A stretch of DNA of 64,000 nt, from contig CAWJTV010000024.1 in NCBI GenBank assembly GCA_963845755.1, forward strand, positions 1-64,000, given 5' to 3'. This DNA comes from an uncultured Planctomycetota bacterium (GTDB lineage: Bacteria; Planctomycetota; Planctomycetia; Isosphaerales; Isosphaeraceae). The translations under genes and the position numbers were made by a program. The notes beneath the pieces were generated by a model. The model saw only the letters and a program-made list of their open reading frames with translations. It did no database searches and had not been told where the DNA came from. Positions 1 through 7,799 of the stretch are shown here, piece by piece (the first letter of the stretch is position 1; every line of letters starts with the position of its first letter).

Positions 1-273
1 GACCGTTTGGCCAAGGAAATCGAAGCCGTTCTCCAAATGCGTGATCCTGGTTTTCTCGTGGGAGAGTTCGAGACCCCGCTGACGTAGGAAGTGTTCCACG
101 AGAGGTCGGACTTCGCGTTGCAGGAGGATTCGTGAGGTGCTGGTGATGATGAAGTCATCCGCATAGCGGACCAGATGGACCTTGGCTTCGTCACGCCGAT
201 GGCCTCGGGTGCCAAAGCGTTGCTCCAACAACTGCTGGAGCCCATCTAACGTCCGATTCGCCAGCGAGGAGAA
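1..273 (-). pseudogene. ltrA: Group II intron RT/maturase, fragment 4 (end of RT4 to RT7), continues out of the window
   Basis: Minus-strand translation gives SP-LANRTLDGLQQLLEQRFG...KVHLVRYADDFIIT...LELSHEKTRITHLENGFDFLGQTV, including YADD and GFDFLG. There is a 1-nt deletion near 266. Confidence 0.92.
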
Positions 274-298
274 ATCACGCCCCCAACAATGTTGCAAA
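274..298 (+). repeat. Left terminal inverted repeat of the LSR element
   Basis: ATCACGCCCCCAACAATGTTGCAAA, the exact reverse complement of 2270-2294. Confidence 0.95.
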
Positions 299-430
299 AC
301 CGTCCCTGATCCCTGACTCTGTCATTTCCAGATCGCGGCTCCGACCGAAGTATGGGCAAGGATGGCAGCCCGGGCTCGATCCCCGTCCAAGGCAGGCTGA
401 CAGCCGCGGTCTTGGAGAGGATGAGTCAAC

Positions 431-643
431 ATGATTACATCTCAACGGAGGTCAGCCCTGAGCCCTCCCGTCACCCGCCATTTCGAGTTCACCCGGTTTC
501 AGGATGAGGTGATCGCGCTGGCATACCAGGCCTTGATCCCGGTCGTTTCTCGCCACCTGGAACGGTCGCGATCGCGATCTCACGACAACGAGCAGGCCAC
601 CACAACGATGCAGGGACTCCGATCAAAGGCCAGAGGAGCTTGA
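431..643 (+). CDS. Small hypothetical protein of the LSR element (candidate directionality or accessory factor)
   Basis: 70-aa ORF with GGAGAGG upstream. It ends 6 nt before the LSR ATG and its 3' end carries the LSR RBS (GAGGAG). Confidence 0.65.
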   Translation: MITSQRRSALSPPVTRHFEFTRFQDEVIALAYQALIPVVSRHLERSRSRSHDNEQATTTMQGLRSKARGA

Positions 644-649
644 CCAGCC

Positions 650-2294
650 ATGCTCAATCACGATCTCTGTGTGGGGACCTATGGCCGGGTCTCCGGGGAC
701 CAACAGTCCAAGGAGGACACGATCGCCAGCCAGCTTGAGGCGATCAGGCAGCGCGTCGCGAGCGACGGCTTGGTATGCTCCCCCGAGCTGTGCTTTGTGG
801 ACGATGGCTACACCGGGGATACCCTGGTCCGCCCGGGCCTCGAACGACTTCGGGACCAGGCCGCTGCTGGGACCATCGATCGCCTCTACATTCTCGATCC
901 CGATCGACTTTCGCGCAAATATGCCTACCAGGTTTTGATACTCGAGGAACTGGCCCGGTGCGGCGTTGAGGTCGTCTTCCTGCGCAATCCCCTGGGTCAC
1001 GGACCCGAAGAGAACCTGCTTGTGCAGGTCCAGGGCATGATCGCTGAATACGAGCGTGCCAAGATCATGGAGCGGTGTCGCCGAGGCAAGCAGTACGCCG
1101 CCCGCCACGGCTCGGTCAACGTGCTCAGCGGCGCGCCGTATGGCTACCGCTACATCGGCAAGCATGAGGGCGGCGGCGCGGCGCGTTATCAGGTCGTGGC
1201 CGACGAGGCGCGGATCGTGCGGAAGATCTTCGGGTGGGTCGGCCAGGAACGATGCTCGATCGGTGAGGTTTGCCGACGTCTGCAACGCGACGGCGTCCCC
1301 ACGCGGACGGGCAAATCGGCCTGGGACCGCTCGGTGATCTGGTCGTATCTCAGGAACCCTGCCTACAAGGGGACGGCCGGTTTCGGCAAGACGCACGCGG
1401 GCGCCCTCAAGCCGAAGCGGCTGCGCGCAACGCGGCCGTCCTGAGCAGCCCCGGCGTCCTGTCTCTCGGGTCGATACATCCACGCAAGAACAAATCTTCA
1501 TCGATGTCCCCGGTTTGGTGAGCGAGGAACTCTTCGGGATGGTTCAAGCTCAAATCGAGGAGAACCGGCAACGCCGGCGCGAACGGCTCCGTGGCGACCG
1601 CTATCTCCTCCAGGGGTTAGTTGTCTGCAAACGGTGCGGCTACGGCTGCTACGGCAAGCCGGTGAGCCGGGCCTCGGCCAAGGGGAAGGTCCCCTACGCC
1701 TACTACCGCTGCACCGGCTCCGACGCCTATCGTTTCGGTGGCCAGCGACTGTGTTGGAACAAGCAGGTCCGCACGGATGTCTTGGACGCCGCCGTCTGGG
1801 AAGATGTGCGTCATCTCTTGTCCGAGCCCGAACGGGTTCGAGTGGAGTACGAACGGCGGCTGCACGGGCCGGAGACAGGCCCAGACCGCGAGGTGAAGCA
1901 TCTCAACAAATTGATTGCGAATCTAAAAAAGATGATCGCTCGATTGATCGATGCCTACGGCGAGGGATTACTTAACAAGTCGGAGTTCGAGCCGAGGATC
2001 TTGGCAGCGCACGAGCGCCTGGCCAAACTGGAGGATGAGTGTCGGCAGCAGATTGACGAGGCCAACCAGGAAGCCGAACTGCGGCTGGTGATCGGCCAGT
2101 TGGAGGAGTTCGCGAGACGCGTTTCCCACGAGTTGCAAGAGCCGGACTGGGCCACGCGACGGGCGATCGTTCGGGCTTTGGTGAAGAAGGTCGAGATCGA
2201 CGAGCAGGAGGTCCGCATCGTGTATCGGATCAGTCCGTCCCCTTTTGAGGGAGGCCCCCAACAGGGTTCTTTGCAACATTGTTGGGGGCGTGAT
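650..2294 (+). CDS. Large serine recombinase (resolvase, recombinase, Zn-ribbon and coiled-coil domains); frameshift near 1425; no stop codon inside the element
   Basis: YGRVS catalytic motif, DDGYTG..RPGLERL, DRLSR, PYGY, LLQGLVVCKRCG..YYRC..C. ORFs 650-1444 and 1515-2573 join with one added base. The ORF reads through the right TIR (SLQHCWGRD) into flanking DNA. Confidence 0.9.
2270..2294 (-). repeat. Right terminal inverted repeat of the LSR element
   Basis: TTTGCAACATTGTTGGGGGCGTGAT. Confidence 0.95.
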
Positions 2295-2355
2295 GATCCC
2301 TCCTTGAGGTGTGCCTTCCGTGGTGGCGAAGAGAACTTGCTTCTCCAGGAAACCG
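2295..2355 (-). pseudogene. ltrA: Group II intron RT fragment 3
   Basis: Minus strand encodes GFLEKQVLFATTEGTPQGGI, which continues KWLKA from 3888-3910. Confidence 0.9.
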
Positions 2356-3887
2356 GTACCCGTTCATGGGGCGTGATAGCTGGAATTAGGCGGCCTCGAT
2401 CTTTGGTGGAGTCACCGGGACGAGGGAGGGGATCGATTGGTTGCTCCGAGCCGCTTCAAAGCACGATGTCAGGTAGCCCAGCACGTCTCGTCCCTGCTGC
2501 CGGCACGTGGCCACCACGGTCAACATCCGCTCGACGAACCGGCTCCCCTGCGCGCTGTCGGTCCCCCCGCTGATCCGCCGCCAGATCACGGCGTGCCGCT
2601 CGGCGCACTCCGCCGCATTGTTGTCGGGAGGCACCCCCTCGACCCGCGCGAAGGTCCACAAGCTCCCCTCCACGCGCAGGATCTCGGCGCACATCCCGCG
2701 CGTCCGCGGACATCCGCACCGCGCACCGTCGTCCAGCGCCGCTTTGACCTCGCGCCTCACCCGGGTCATCGTCGCGCGGAATCGCCCCCGATCCACCCGC
2801 TCGGCCTCGAGGCGATGCCACCAGCGGTACAACCGATCCGACAGCCTCAACAGTCGTCGGCCGATCGGTTCGGCCGCCCCGCCGCGGTCGATCATCGCCT
2901 GGAAATCGCGGCGGAGATGGCTCCAGCAGATCTGCCGGCCGGCCGCGGCGATCCAGTCGTAGGAACTGCAACGGTCGGTCACCGCGATCGAGCCGTCGTG
3001 CGTCCCCAGGACCGCTCGGGCCACCTTGGCGGTGCGGTTGCGGGCGATGGTGAAGACGGTGAACATCGCGGTCACCGCCGCCCAAAGCCAGGCCTTGGCC
3101 GCTCCTCCCGCCAGGAGGTCTCGTCGGCATGGATCACCTCCGCCGTGTGGACGGCGACGGCCAGCTCGTTATAGGGGGCCTCCAGCACGGCGGCCGATTG
3201 TCGCTCCAGCTTGGAGATCATCCCGGTGGAGATCGACAGCCCCAACAGATCGCCGGCGAGTTGCTGGATCTGCCGCTTGCTGAGGCGGTAGGCGCCGGCC
3301 AGGGTCGCCAGCACGGCCTGAGTGTACGGGCTGAAGTGGCTGGTGGAGACCCCCTCGGGGAGGGTCGCACACGTGGTCGTCCCACAGTCCGGACAAGCGA
3401 GCCGATGCAGCCGGTATTCGTCCACGAGTGGCTCGATCCGGGGCAGGTCGGCGACCTGATGGATCAAGGGTGTGGGATCCTCGCCGTGCAGCGCATGGCC
3501 GCAGCGACGACAGGCCCCGGGCCGACGATCGGTGGACGATCGGAGCTCCTCGGGAGGGACCAGGGCGCGGAACGCCTTGCGATGGCCGGGTTGTCCGCCG
3601 CGTTTGCGCCGCGAAGGCGGAGTCGGCGGCTTTCGTTTCAGGCCGATCGGGTCGGAAGAGGGGGGCTTGGAGGAATTCGTCGAGTTGAGTCCGAGCCGGG
3701 CCCGGAGATCGCGCACGGTGGTCTTCAACTCGGCGATCTCATCCCGGAGCACATTCCAGGCATCGAGGAGGGCGGCTTGCGCGTCCTCGGGCACGGTGCT
3801 CCAGAGTGGCTCAGGGATCGGAAGCTGCTGACTCATATACAGTAATACGAACTAACTGTACAAATTGTTCGGGGTGTGAACGGCTAC
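2356..3887 (-). mobile_element. IS66-family element, single-ORF ISBst12-like group
   Basis: Ends GTACCCGTTCA and GTAGCCGTTCA (inverted). 8-bp TSD GGAAACCG at 2348-2355 and 3888-3895. Length 1,532 bp. Confidence 0.92.
2386..3836 (-). CDS. IS66-family DDE transposase (frameshift near 3100)
   Basis: NSTNSSKPPSSD, GGQPGH, CxxC zinc motifs, HADET, QICWSHLRR and PPDNNAAE motifs across ORFs 3072-3836 and 2386-3075. Confidence 0.9.
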
Positions 3888-4417
3888 GGAAACCGGCCTT
3901 CAACCATTTCCTGAGCATGTCCTTGTCCATGGGGATGTGGTCCAGCAGCCAGTTATGGCTGATTTGATCAAAGCATGCTTTGATATCCCCTTCCAAAATC
4001 CATTTCGGACCGGTGGGATTCCTCAGGATCTTGTGACATTGATCCAGAGCATCGGCGCAGCATCGTTCCAACCGAAAGCCATAGGAGTGACCGTCGGCTT
4101 GAGATTCCGCGATGGGATCGAGACCGAGCAGGTGGAGGGCCTGCATAGCTCGATCGGCCATGGTGGGAATCCCGAGGGCGCGGCGGCGGCCGTTGCTCTT
4201 GGGAATGTACACCCTGCGGAGCGGTTGCGGCTGATAGCCGTGCCGACGCAAGGCGTTGAAGGCCCTCGTCTTGGCCTCCGGCGTGGTCCAGAGGATTCCG
4301 TCCACGCCCGGAGTTCTTGCACCCGAATTGCTGATAACTCGTAGAATGGCCAGAGCCCGGCCACTATATGAGTGAGTGAGCAGGTAAACCAGGGCTTTGA
4401 CTTTATTCCACCTGCCC
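3888..4417 (-). pseudogene. ltrA: Group II intron RT fragment 2 (RT0-RT3)
   Basis: GRWNKVKAL..TPGVDG..PLRRVYIPKSNGRRRALGIPTMADRAMQ..SYGFR..WILEGDIKACFDQISH..KWLKAG. Confidence 0.93.
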
Positions 4418-4523
4418 TGATTAGCGACAATTAGAATTCCCGCCCAGCGACAATCAGAATTCCCGCCTCCTCTCGCTTGGTTGTTCACTACGTGGTTTCC
4501 TCCTCGGTCAGGAGGCAACCACC

Positions 4524-6034
4524 ATGACCAAGGACATCCAGGTTCTCAAGCTTCGCCAGCTTCTCGGCGAGGGAATGCCGCTCTACCGTGCGGCTTGGAA
4601 GGTGGGTATGGACGCCAAGACCGCTCAAAAGTACCGAGACTCGGATCGCCTGCCCAGTGAATCGTGGACTCCCAAGACCTGGCGGACCCGGGAGGATCCG
4701 TTCCAGGAAGTCTGGCCGGAACTCCACGATCGGCTGGTGCTCAACCCGGGGCTCCAAGCCAAGACCCTGTTTGAGGATCTTCAGCATCGCTTCCCGGGCC
4801 GGTTCCCCGACGGCCAGCTCCGGACCTTGCAACGGAAGATCAAAGCGTGGCGGGCCACCGACGGTCCACCCAAGGAGGTTTTCTTCGATCAGATCCACAC
4901 GCCCGGCGCGTTGGGCGCCTCCGACTTCACTTCCCTGAACGATTTGCAGGTCACACTCGCTGGCCAATCGTTCGATCACCTGGTCTATCACTTCGTTCTG
5001 ACCTACTCCAACTGGGAGACCGGCACCGTCTGTTTCTCCGAAAGTTTCGAGAGCCTCAGCCAGGGGCTCCAGAACGCCCTTTGGGAACTGGGAGGGGTTC
5101 CCCAGACTCATCGCACCGATCGGCTCACGGCCGCGGTCAACAACCTCGGCGATCGGGACTTGTTCCAGCAACGATACCGCGCCTTGATGGCCCACTATGG
5201 CATGGCACCTCAAGCCATCCAGGCTGGTAAGGCCAACCAGAACGGAGACGCCGAACAGAGTCATAACCGGTTCAAACAAGCGATGGATCAGGCCCTGATG
5301 TTGCGCAGCGGCCGCGATTTCGCCGACCGAGCAGCCTACGAGCTGTTCCTTCGCCAGGTCTTCGCTCAGCGCAACAGCGGACGGATCCCGCGGTTCACCG
5401 AGGAACGACTGTTGCTGAAGGACCTCCCCTCGCGGCGGGTGGACGCCTGGCACCGGCGCCGGGTGCGGGTCACCCAGGGGAGTACGATCCGGGTTGGCTC
5501 CAACACCTACTCGGTGCCGAGCCGACTCATCGGTGAACAGGTCGATGTCCATGTGATGGCGGAATGCCTGGAGGTGTGGCACGGCGCGGCGCGATTGAAA
5601 GGGTCCCTCGGCAGCGCGGCCACAACAAACACGTGATTAACTATCGGCACGTGATCGACTGGTTGGTGCGCAAGCCGGGGGCGTTCGCGGCCTATCGGCA
5701 CCGGGACGCGATGTTCCCAACCGGCCGGTTTCGCCGAGCCTACGACGTCTTGCTGGCACAAAGCCCGGCCCGCGCCACCAAGGATTATCTCCGGATCCTG
5801 GAGTTGGCGGCGAAGGAGTCGGAAGTCGGGGTCGACGCCGTCCTGGGCCGGCTCTTGGACGGGAACATGCCGATCACCCCGACCGTCGTCACGGAGCACC
5901 TGGGTCACGACCTGGGCCTGCCTCGCGCGATGGAGGTGGTCGTCACGACGGTGGATTTGTCGATGTACGACCTGTTACTCGAGACCAGGGAGGATATTCC
6001 ATCAGTAAGCCAATCGATGTGCATGAGTCTCTGA
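4524..6034 (+). CDS. istA: IS21 transposase IstA (frameshift near 5590)
   Basis: WRTREDPF, LRTLQR, ASDFT, HRTDRLTAAV, NGDAEQSH, NTYSVPSRLIG; C-terminal INYRHVIDWLVRKPGAF in the next frame. Confidence 0.9.
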
Positions 6035-6795
6035 CGGACTGCCTTCGCGAGCTCCACCTGCCGACGATCCGGCAGGCGTACGAATCGGCGGCGGCACGAG
6101 CCCGTCAGGAGTTGACCAGTTACGAACGTTACCTCCTGGATCTGGCGGAGCGCGAGTGCGAGTCGCGGCGTTCCCACCGGGTCGAGCGGTTGTTGCGAGA
6201 ATCGAGGCTGTTCATGGAAAAGAACCTGTCAAGCCTGGACCTGAAGCGACTGCCGTCCAAGGCGGCGCAGCAGGTCAGAACTCTGCTCGAAGGCGATTTT
6301 GTTGGACGAAATGACAATGTGCTCATATTCGGGAATCCCGGCAGTGGCAAGAGCCACGTGGCGTGCGCGATCGGGCAGGAACTGATCCGCTCGGGGCGGA
6401 AGGTGATGTTCGCGACGTGCGCCTTGATGGTTCAAGATCTGTTGGCCGCGAAGCGCGACCTGAAGCTGCGCGGTTTTCTCAAGAAGATTTCCCGATATGA
6501 GGTGCTGATCCTTGACGATATTGGATACGTACAATACAGCCGGGACGAGATGGAGGTGCTCTTCAACCTGCTGGCGGAACGGTACGAGCGCGGGAGCGTG
6601 ATGCTGACGAGCAACCTGCCGTTTTCGGGATGGGAGGCGATCTTCAAGGATCCGATGACGACCGCCGCCGCCATCGACCGGCTGGTGCACCATAGCGTGA
6701 TCGTGGAGTTGAACGTTCCGAGCTACCGAGCCGAGCAGGCCAAGAAGTCGCGTCAAAAGCCGGTGGAACCGACAGACGCACGAGAGGAGGGATGA
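6019..6795 (+). CDS. istB: IS21 helper ATPase IstB
   Basis: Walker A GNPGSGKS, Walker B LILDDIGY, TSNLPFSGW, AAIDRLVHH. Confidence 0.95.
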   Translation: MHESLTDCLRELHLPTIRQAYESAAARARQELTSYERYLLDLAERECESRRSHRVERLLRESRLFMEKNLSSLDLKRLPSKAAQQVRTLLEGDFVGRNDNVLIFGNPGSGKSHVACAIGQELIRSGRKVMFATCALMVQDLLAAKRDLKLRGFLKKISRYEVLILDDIGYVQYSRDEMEVLFNLLAERYERGSVMLTSNLPFSGWEAIFKDPMTTAAAIDRLVHHSVIVELNVPSYRAEQAKKSRQKPVEPTDAREEG

Positions 6796-6928
6796 ACGAG
6801 GCGCAGGAATGGTTGATCCCAGAGGCGAGAGGGATGGTCAATTGGCCAGAATCCCAGGGGCTTGTACACTATGGCCGAGTAGGGAATTCTAATTGTCGTC
6901 GACAGGGAAATCTAATTGTCGCTAATCA

Positions 6929-7061
6929 TGCCCTCCCGAACCGCCTTCACGATACGCGCCTGGAGCCGACGAACATTGCGGTAGACCGCCTTCCAATTGA
7001 TGGAATGCCAGTCGGTTGCAAGGTCGGGAGCCGCACCAGCGGGCATTTCTGCTGCTGACAT
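6929..7061 (-). pseudogene. ltrA: Group II intron RT fragment 1 (N-terminus)
   Basis: MSAAEMPAGAAPDLATDWHSINWKAVYRNVRRLQARIVKAVREG with RBS-like AAAGGGAG upstream. It joins GRWNKVK across the IS21 TSD. Confidence 0.9.
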
Positions 7062-7799
7062 ATCTGCTTGTCTCCCTTTGTCGGTTGGCCAAGGTTCTCT
7101 CGTGACGGAAGACCAGAGGGAAGTCTGCCCCCTTTCGGGTAGGGTGATCTCGCCGGATGGCTCAACCCTTATCTGGTCGGTTACGGACCAGCTTTCGCTT
7201 TCTCCCTCCTCCTTTACCCGCCGCCCCATCGGCTTCTCTTGCGAGTCGCTTTCCCTTGCGGGGAGACGACGGGCTTACCACGTTTCGCCGATATGCCGGG
7301 GTGGGGAAGGTCGCAGCTATCCGCCGGTGGTCCGTCATCTGCGTCGAGAGATCGATGAGCCCTCGAACCTGACCACATGCCGTTTTGGCCCAAGCGTGTC
7401 AGCATCTTTCGCTTGTTCGCACTCACGACGTTTATCGCTGCTTCACCGAAGTTGACCTATCCACCTCATCCTGGCCCCCGACCGCCTTGATGCTCGCGGT
7501 CGCAGCGTCAGCTCACGCGTCGGCTGCCCTCTCGAGAGAGGAGGTTACGTTGTTCCGGGGCTTACTATCCCGGTAGGATCCTGTCGGCAGAACAACAGGT
7601 GCCGTCGGTCTTCTCCGAAGGCCTCGGCACAGCCACATCGACGACATCGTGTCGCACCTTCGAGAGTGCGGGAGAGCCGTCAAGTGGCACCATTTCTTCT
7701 GAGTTATTTGGCGCCATGGATGCAATCGCTGTTGCTGCGCATCCGCAGGGTGATCAGAGCTTCTGAAGACGAAAGGCCCTTCTTTGAGCCGAGACAACA

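Follow-up and report, generated by a model that had tools for sequence, protein, structure and literature searches.

The first 64,000 nucleotides (nt) of contig CAWJTV010000024.1 (GenBank assembly GCA_963845755.1), from an uncultured member of the Isosphaeraceae (Planctomycetota), form the window analysed here. Near the start of this window, at positions 274-2294, lies a 2,021-bp unit that is very probably an autonomous mobile element of insertion sequence (IS) size, moved via conservative site-specific recombination into motif 4 of the reverse transcriptase (RT) genes of group II introns. Its only cargo is an open reading frame (ORF) of 70 amino acids and the gene of a large serine recombinase (LSR); neither the ORF list nor Pfam reveals a transposase gene within it. 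The two 25-nt arms that bound the unit are 100% complementary (see the table for coordinates). An earlier note, made from the sequence without database searches, had described perfect 25-bp terminal inverted repeats (TIRs) around a 2,021-bp unit with these two genes, and a shared AT in place of any longer target-site duplication. Both descriptions are borne out, the second by the empty sites described next, and the likeness which the note saw between the TIR end and the target half-site (7/11) is correct on direct reading.

The genome assembly (14.27 Mb, 49 contigs) was searched for other copies and for unoccupied targets. It contains six copies of the element, perhaps representing five loci, which are 95-100% identical and account for exactly 12 ends; no solo end is present in the genome. 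Every one of the six adjoins RT motif 4; at least four different RT genes are hit, and both orientations occur. Five of them have the N-terminal half of an RT on one side and the C-terminal half on the other, while the copy on contig C6 lies between two N-terminal halves. Flank searches recovered eight uninterrupted sites, and all eight consist of flank, 2 nt and flank: the intervening dinucleotide is AT in the three empty sites of intron family A (TTEGTPQGGIISPALANRTL) and GT in the five of family B. Insertion thus adds the element minus two shared bases, a pattern expected of a serine recombinase rather than of a transposase with target duplication. When translated, the uninterrupted alleles read GGIISP (three sites) or GGIVSP (five sites) at the junction. 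Another intron, with six uninterrupted copies and the motif GTPQGSVASPILAN, is never occupied, and its site DNA lacks the ATC-(A/G)TC-TC string, implying that DNA sequence rather than protein motif is recognised. In total, 14 uninterrupted intron motif sites and one retron-like site are found beside the five or six occupied ones.

Relatives outside this genome were followed in proteins and in contigs. Among the 120 best metagenome LSR protein clusters (80-100% identity, 438-784 amino acids), length varies, as the ORF extends beyond the element and the C-terminal tails are therefore translated flanks. The tail reads the reverse complement of PQG in 48 of the 120 clusters (0.13% at random positions) and SP in the +1 frame in 49 (5.9% at random). 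The remaining clusters comprise one that reads the right end and then the left end, 14 classed as 'other', seven that are too short and one without the motif; the tails of P0017, P0053 and P0098 were parsed at a later WG and are counted as 'other' or 'short'. In contigs from one genome per species, 573 stretches encode relatives, 80 of which were examined. At 47 of these 80 loci, tblastn with the intact RT of this genome finds an RT half that ends or starts at the motif directly against the element: the RT is on the LSR strand in 15 and on the opposite strand in 14, two are N-half/N-half, one is C-half/C-half and 15 are one-sided. The other 33 comprise nine without usable flank, one (L043) with the motif on both of its very short flanks, and 23 with no RT half. 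Orientation is therefore unbiased in both sets (15:14 loci, 48:49 tails).

The carriers belong to Planctomycetota, Chloroflexota, Acidobacteriota, Nitrospirota, Spirochaetota and Pseudomonadota and include Pseudomonas, Paraburkholderia, a Ralstonia plasmid, Mycoavidus and Singulisphaera. A direct search of 400 genomes from the phylum, a thin sample, gave one other carrier. In the TOL plasmid pWW53 (locus L109, NC_008275.1 75913-83510), which is among the 47 loci, RT halves are confirmed on both sides, reading ...GTPQGAV^ and ^ISPLLANIY (here and below the caret marks the insertion point). The TOL plasmid pDK1 (NC_014124.1) likewise has a relative between RT halves. The LSR identity is 52%, and in both plasmids the PLSDB gene table annotates fragments only, as 'recombinase family protein'. 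One gammaproteobacterial relative (L096:2087-4170) has perfect terminal inverted repeats of 76 nt, compared with the usual ~25 nt. The spread of the family across phyla is what a multicopy and itself mobile target would lead to.

The earlier note had proposed that the element is a site-specific parasite of group II introns, and the proposal is supported by 6/6 copies in this genome, 47/80 loci elsewhere and 97/120 tails. It had suggested collecting LSR homologues with an LQHCWGR-like tail and translating their flanks, and 97 of the 120 clusters do translate RT-motif flanks; it had also named repeated independent insertions at the same codons in both orientations as support, which the six copies in at least four RT genes provide here. 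With regard to homologues at unrelated sites without RT bias, the outcome is divided: the bias towards RT genes is overwhelming, but three clades and some stray copies have other targets.

These exceptions can be placed on a quick LSR tree built from 73 rows, nine rows having been dropped for stops or truncation, which carries SH-aLRT (approximate likelihood ratio test) support only, the careful search being unfinished. RT-targeting extends over the whole tree, and targets other than RT genes are confined to three coherent clades and a few stray copies. Among the latter, L033, L035 and L038 encode LSRs identical or nearly identical to those of RT-targeting copies and have no detectable RT at their sites; their flanks are loosely like the target (e.g. 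..CCGCAAGACGGCGG^) and they look like off-target insertions. One of the three clades is represented in this same genome by 'family 2', six ~100% identical 2.0-kb copies whose LSR gene shares 66-67% DNA identity with that of the element described above (family 1). Its ends, which resemble A(T/C)G(A/G)CCCCAACAG(A/T)GTGG, were derived by aligning the copies, since a search for inverted repeats from exact seeds missed them. It inserts at a single position in a short repeat that is diverged and rich in hairpins, ...GGGTTTCACCCGGGGCTGGGCTCC^TGCGGCCCTTCAGGCCGCC..., and this repeat is unoccupied at about a dozen places.

The recombinase matches the Pfam families Resolvase (PF00239, 7e-27), Recombinase (PF07508, 8.3e-12) and Zn_ribbon_recom (PF13408, 4.8e-11). 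The catalytic domain is N-terminal, at residues 10-154 of a protein of ~550 amino acids that has the LSR C-terminal domains. All 45 rows of alignment A2 share Y11, R13, V14 and S15, and four cysteines (C327, C330, C355 and C369) are invariant as well. An AlphaFold2 (AF2) model has long helices at 283-309 and 315-364, and Foldseek gives 28 matches at E<=0.001 to solved serine integrases, with those of SPbeta, A118, PhiC31 and Bxb1 on top. A phmmer search of P0002 against the PDB found nothing at 1e-5; a profile search did recover relatives, matching the catalytic domains of TP901-1 integrase and gamma-delta resolvase to the LSR. By its catalytic domain, its recombinase and zinc-ribbon domains and its predicted fold, the protein is a large serine recombinase. 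In the window the gene is split over two frames (650-1444 and 1515 onward) and its ORF continues past the element to 2573, while intact homologues of 549-784 amino acids are abundant among the metagenome protein clusters.

No stop codon for the LSR lies inside any of 44 elements, and the left end encodes, from its first bases, a peptide without a start codon whose reading frame matches that of the LSR only when the ends are joined. The peptide follows the pattern ..NNVAK..(L/I)EF.....SR.RLRP.YG.GF.GAPL.., which is common to elements whose LSRs are 50-57% identical to P0002, and it is retained even in hosts of 35-43% GC. Differences in it amount to 0.46, 0.44 and 0.70 per codon position, which is an excess at third positions. 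Its TGA stop overlaps the start codon of the small ORF in the window (ATGA). One metagenome protein (P0077, one of the 120 clusters) reads ...CWGRD-HAPNNVAK..., that is, the right end and then the left end with a single shared AT; the joint could equally stem from a tandem copy instead of a circle. The canonical LSR domains are complete in the integrated copy, and an extra tail of ~50 amino acids would be translatable only from joined ends. Contigs from Logan for four soil-metagenome runs were compared with window positions 1-4600 and none of them joins 2294 to 274, although contigs cannot show absence. A joint between 299 and 2270 in run X1, reported as 'opposite strands' and considered as a new inversion, is best explained by a copy of the C47 type, which has a family-B N-half beside the left end.

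These observations lead to the following scheme. The LSR would excise the element as a circle, the probable intermediate of movement, in which the 25-bp ends, joined as ...GGGGGCGTG-AT-CACGCCCCC..., would form the attP, a perfect palindrome of 48 bp centred on AT. The circle would then integrate into an attB formed by the DNA for RT motif 4, PQG(G/S)x(I/V/L)^SP(L/A)LAN; for the window copy the partner of the joined-end palindrome would be the PQGGIISPALAN-coding DNA. Strand exchange would span bases one and two of the codon preceding Ser-Pro. A symmetric attP with a palindromic core would permit insertion in either orientation and exchange between two occupied introns, yielding chimeras of two N-halves or two C-halves; both outcomes are seen. 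Such chimeras are found at C6, L031, L069 and L027, while L036 and L098 have one flank in common and the other not. The C6 arrangement, with YNETLSGTPQGGI on the left and the reverse complement of GSPQGSP on the right, is the product expected from exchange or inversion between two occupied introns, although the reciprocal C/C product was not found in the assembly. At L031:1819-4460, in a metagenome-assembled genome of an uncultured Planctomycetaceae bacterium, the element is flanked by a 334-nt inverted duplication that places the same RT N-half on both sides; of its two mismatches, one affects the first position in the junction dinucleotide (AT vs CT).

Variation among the ends of the copies is confined to the two outermost bases, which are AT, GT or AC, and the dinucleotides at the two junctions of one copy differ in three of the six (GT/AT twice and AC/AT once, the last at C6). 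The residue encoded at the junction likewise varies among close relatives on both junction types, which fits a central dinucleotide that is not read by the protein and is exchanged with each target. Textbook serine integrases require matching central dinucleotides. A solved Bxb1 complex is titled as having mismatched GT/TT dinucleotides in a pre-strand-exchange state. The mixed junctions of family B may reflect tolerance of a mismatch followed by replication, which would be unusual for this class of enzyme, or a more complex history. A crossover one base pair off-centre, with a TC core, would explain family B without any mismatch and was rejected as a general rule: the targets of L036 and L098 have ATT, and 20 of the 49 SP-side tails begin not with D but with G, A or V, which means that the first core base is variable on that side too.

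A small-ORF look-alike is found just upstream of the LSR in 59 of the 80 loci, in a loose tblastn search with E up to 10 and many weak matches; 47 of these satisfied the ORF filters, and an alignment of 31 shows no variation at R22 and Y32. Sequence searches with the small proteins gave 0/31 matches in Pfam, 0/31 in PHROGs and one chance-level match in the PDB profile search. When modelled alone by AF2 the protein is a single helix only. Modelled as a complex with the C-terminal region of the LSR it scores 0.77, compared with 0.00 for the best of three controls; among solved complexes 116 of 157 reach this score, as do 2 of 215 mismatched pairs, counts that are only a rough guide here because custom alignments were the input of the model. 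The model runs share at least 98% of contacts, and the partner has a predicted local distance difference test score (pLDDT) of at least 67. The modelled interface joins LSR residues 378-404 and 488-534, segments that flank the coiled coil, to small-protein residues 11-38: strand 13-19 of the small protein contacts LSR 522-526 and its helix contacts 503-511 and 378-404. Recombination directionality factors (RDFs) act at the coiled-coil base of serine integrases. The model supports a similar, RDF-like binding of the small protein at the base of the LSR coiled coil, and the 70-amino-acid protein may bias the direction of recombination.

A more elaborate scheme, which can be put forward only tentatively and is somewhat doubtful, would unite these parts. 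Integration would split the LSR gene, so that the tail-less enzyme with the small protein excises the element and the full-length enzyme made from the circle integrates it, with no host or phage factor involved. The unread central dinucleotide would be swapped with each target, mismatches would be tolerated and the element would thereby follow the Ile, Val, Leu and Thr codon variants of the motif, while loaded introns may carry the element by retrohoming with RT supplied in trans. The earlier note had likewise suggested that the element could hitchhike on intron RNA, and that it could turn intron mobility off or on; the apparent duplicate of a loaded intron on C24 (the window contig) and C16 proved to be a 5.1-kb overlap of contig ends and is not countable as retrohomed.

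Other explanations of the same data have to be considered. If the element were intron cargo that entered domain IV once and has since spread by retrohoming only, the LSR would not choose the site at all. Loaded introns of one family do recur in genomes, as at L034 and L037 with identical flanks and orientation, and intact intron copies could supply RT in trans. This explanation nevertheless seems extremely unlikely, as elements 95-100% identical reside in at least four unrelated RT genes and in two intron classes (D1D4-7 and D1D4-4), both orientations occur within one intron family (C3 vs C47), look-alike sites outside RT genes are occupied with an identical LSR (that of L033 equals that of L034), and the element is the sole difference between empty and occupied sites. 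It is just as hard to credit an ordinary TIR transposon that makes a 2-bp duplication, uses a DDE transposase encoded elsewhere and carries the LSR as resolvase or passenger, even though perfect TIRs and an AT...AT repeat resemble those of some IS families. The element lacks a transposase gene, the flanking dinucleotides of the family-B copies differ (GT vs AT) and hence are no duplication, the TIRs are inside the LSR reading frame, which continues across the joined ends, and the class of target follows LSR phylogeny.

It also seems very unlikely that the element is a domesticated switch that benefits the host as a defence, silencing intron RT genes reversibly, instead of a selfish parasite. 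Insertion does destroy RT motif 4, precise excision would restore it, and the family is old and widespread, but the copy numbers, near-identical copies, off-target insertions, patchy distribution (1/400 genomes of the phylum) and presence on plasmids are marks of selfishness, and most intron copies in this genome are unoccupied (14 and the retron-like site vs five or six occupied). That the window copy, and perhaps every copy here, is a dead relic is unlikely, if less so than the explanations above. Frameshifts occur in all six assembled copies and the same intron holds IS66 and IS21 inserts. The indels differ, however, among the near-identical copies and are clustered in a GCGCGC run (1393-1425), and independent metagenome contigs lack the indels at three positions, having GC after 1422, which restores a single LSR frame, C after 266 and C after 3097. 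Furthermore, window positions 1-5128 and C16:1-5129 are a reverse-complement overlap of contig ends with 99.8% identity and differences that are mostly indels, so that the C24 and C16 copies are probably one locus assembled twice, and their ~0.2% difference gives the level of assembly noise. Past ISP the RT frame is shifted in the window because one nucleotide near 266 is missing; the C16 copy, the empty sites and a contig of run X4 do not have this deletion. The frameshift of the LSR, the deletion in the RT flank and the frameshift of the IS66 transposase in the window are thus probably assembly errors, apart from which the window copy would be intact, and intact homologues of 549-784 amino acids abound. 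Four of the copies differ by 3-8 substitutions over ~2 kb; together with the frame-restoring contig, this makes activity of the element likely.

A mobile, LSR-driven element that recognises RT motif 4 remains the best reading, and several observations weigh against it or parts of it. At 23 of the 80 related loci the flank is ample and shows no RT half. The family-B copies, whose attB has GT, keep GT at the PQGGI-side junction but have AT at the SP-side junction. Every one of the six assembled copies carries at least one frameshift, and only that at 1422 is contradicted by an independent contig. The tail (406-472) of the P0077 AF2 model has pLDDT <50 and is not confidently modelled. Lastly, complexes of LSRs with RDFs have been solved (9dxd and 9tep), and the score of the modelled complex may partly reflect likeness to them.

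Table. Features of the element and its host intron in the window, and element copies elsewhere in the genome (RVT_1 and RVT_N, Pfam domains; TIR, terminal inverted repeat)
Feature	Position	Strand	Remarks
RT, C-terminal side of the insertion (SP..LAN, YADD onward)	1..273	-	RVT_1 at positions 128-205, 4.8e-13; ends at contig edge
Left TIR, putative attP half-site P'	274..298		Outermost AT (274-275) is the crossover dinucleotide position
Codons of the predicted LSR C-terminal tail (HAPNNVAK...SRSRLRPKYGQGW...)	276..434	+	No start codon of its own; stop TGA 432-434
Small conserved protein, 70 amino acids, candidate recombination directionality or accessory factor	431..643	+
LSR gene (catalytic, recombinase, zinc ribbon, coiled coil)	650..2294	+	Stop-free within the element
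Predicted nucleophile Ser15 codon (YGRVS)	692..694	+
Right TIR, putative attP half-site P	2270..2294		Terminal AT at 2293-2294
RT segment ...TTEGTPQGGI abutting the right end of the element	2295..2355	-
Nested IS66-family element in the same RT gene	2356..3887	-	Frameshift near 3097
RT, N-terminal part (RVT_N and first half of RVT_1)	3888..4417	-	100% identical to copies on C13, C38 and C45
Nested IS21-family element	4418..6928	+
Intron 5' part including ribozyme D1-D4	6929..7678	-	Rfam group-II-D1D4-7 match at 7474-7599
Element copies on C24 and C16			Intron family A, GGI^ISPALAN
Element copies on C3 and C47			Intron family B, GGI^VSPALAN, opposite orientations
Element copy on C22			Third RT, KGTPQGSP^ISPLLANIYM, intron of D1D4-4 class
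Element copy on C6	C6:31935-33955 (L108 3936-5956)		Between N-halves of two different RTs that face each other
Family 2 copies (L007-L018)	C42:185878-187483, C11:827481-829086, C11:819791-821395, C18:9665-11271, C20:3537-5093, C13:234826-236434

The host intron of the window copy is itself interrupted several times. The RT piece at the contig edge (1-273) shares 98.9% identity with the intact copies on C13, C17 and C45, and Pfam matches RVT_N and the first half of RVT_1 over 3811-4518. An intact copy (L105) has a group-II-D1D4-7 match at 755-880, an ORF with RVT_N, RVT_1, GIIM and HNH domains at 1080-2987 and an Intron_gpII match (domain V/VI) at 3010-3086; this layout of D1-D4 RNA, RT ORF and domain V/VI shows that the target is a genuine group II intron. 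With IS66-family and IS21-family inserts beside the element, the window intron is a three-fold nested graveyard, and further near-identical copies of these inserts, at least three of the IS66-family and at least eight of the IS21-family element, are present in the genome.

Full-text searches of the literature, with subscription-only papers and ISfinder outside their scope, turned up no account of an LSR-driven element whose target is the RT gene of group II introns. The main text of one LSR survey (PMC10083194) does not contain 'reverse transcriptase', and its eight supplementary files contain neither that term nor maturase, group II intron or RVT_1. An IS-sized LSR element with a palindromic attP and a retroelement motif as its target appears to be unnamed. 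If the reading given here is true, group II introns have a dedicated DNA parasite, a parasite of a parasite, in at least six bacterial phyla, and there is a new IS-like family that is moved by a large serine recombinase. The element would also be a natural integrase system in which a conserved protein-coding motif serves as attB and is hence available wherever the retroelement has spread. It might slow the spread of introns and would give rise to inversions between their copies. The compact set of a 550-amino-acid integrase, a 48-bp palindromic attP, a small partner protein and a frame completed at the junction makes control of direction and tolerance of central dinucleotides in serine integrases directly testable and is of interest for genome engineering.

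Comparison with known systems helps to place the element. Like the IS607 family, it is IS-sized and moved by a serine recombinase. IS607 transposases are small proteins whose DNA-binding domain precedes the catalytic one, and IS607 elements are not known to have TIRs. By that definition the element differs, as its catalytic domain is N-terminal and followed by Recombinase and zinc-ribbon domains and its TIRs are perfect; the catalytic domains of archaeal ISC1904 and ISC1926 are distant matches only. Phage serine integrases with RDFs (SPbeta SprA/SprB, PhiC31 Int/gp3, Bxb1, A118) share with the LSR the order of domains, the fold, an inverted-repeat attP of ~50 bp, an attB inside a gene and a small partner, predicted here at the coiled-coil base. 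Unlike them, the element carries no phage or island cargo, its attP is perfectly palindromic including the core, so that polarity is lost, and it makes many insertions per genome in a multicopy target; its small protein has no sequence relative among the solved RDFs.

The joined ends of the element would complete a reading frame, whereas those of Tn4451 are reported to form a promoter; according to the title of a paper by Lyras and Rood (2000), the circle in such clostridial elements changes recombinase expression. Nesting of mobile elements has precedents. IStrons and twintrons place one mobile element inside another (PMC4227781, PMC7049729), but they are intron-transposon fusions or introns within introns in which splicing keeps the host element functional, whereas the present element breaks the RT gene and moves as DNA. 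Similar in choice of target are integrative mobilizable elements with serine recombinases that reside in conserved genes of other mobile elements, such as traG of Tn5252-like integrative conjugative elements (PMC5704250). There, too, a conserved gene of another mobile element serves as attB, but those are larger mobilisable islands in conjugative elements, while here a minimal element uses the catalytic motif of a retroelement in many phyla. The nearest parallel in mechanism is provided by the clostridial elements Tn4451/Tn4453 (TnpX) and Tn5397 (TndX), in which the LSR is the sole element protein needed, a circle is formed, exchange takes place over two identical base pairs and no RDF is involved (PMC5704250). 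These transposons insert with low specificity at many sites that contain a GA dinucleotide, are at least 6 kb long and carry resistance and mobilisation genes (PMC5704250). As in Tn4451 and Tn5397, movement would be LSR-driven with two shared base pairs and no long duplication, and the TnpX catalytic domain (2mhc) is a sequence relative of the window LSR (1.7e-09). In contrast to them, the element is 2 kb long, has perfect 25-bp TIRs and one preferred coding motif, conserves a small partner protein and has a core of AT, GT or AC instead of GA. The element thus works like the LSR transposons of the Tn4451/Tn5397 type but is not a member of that group.

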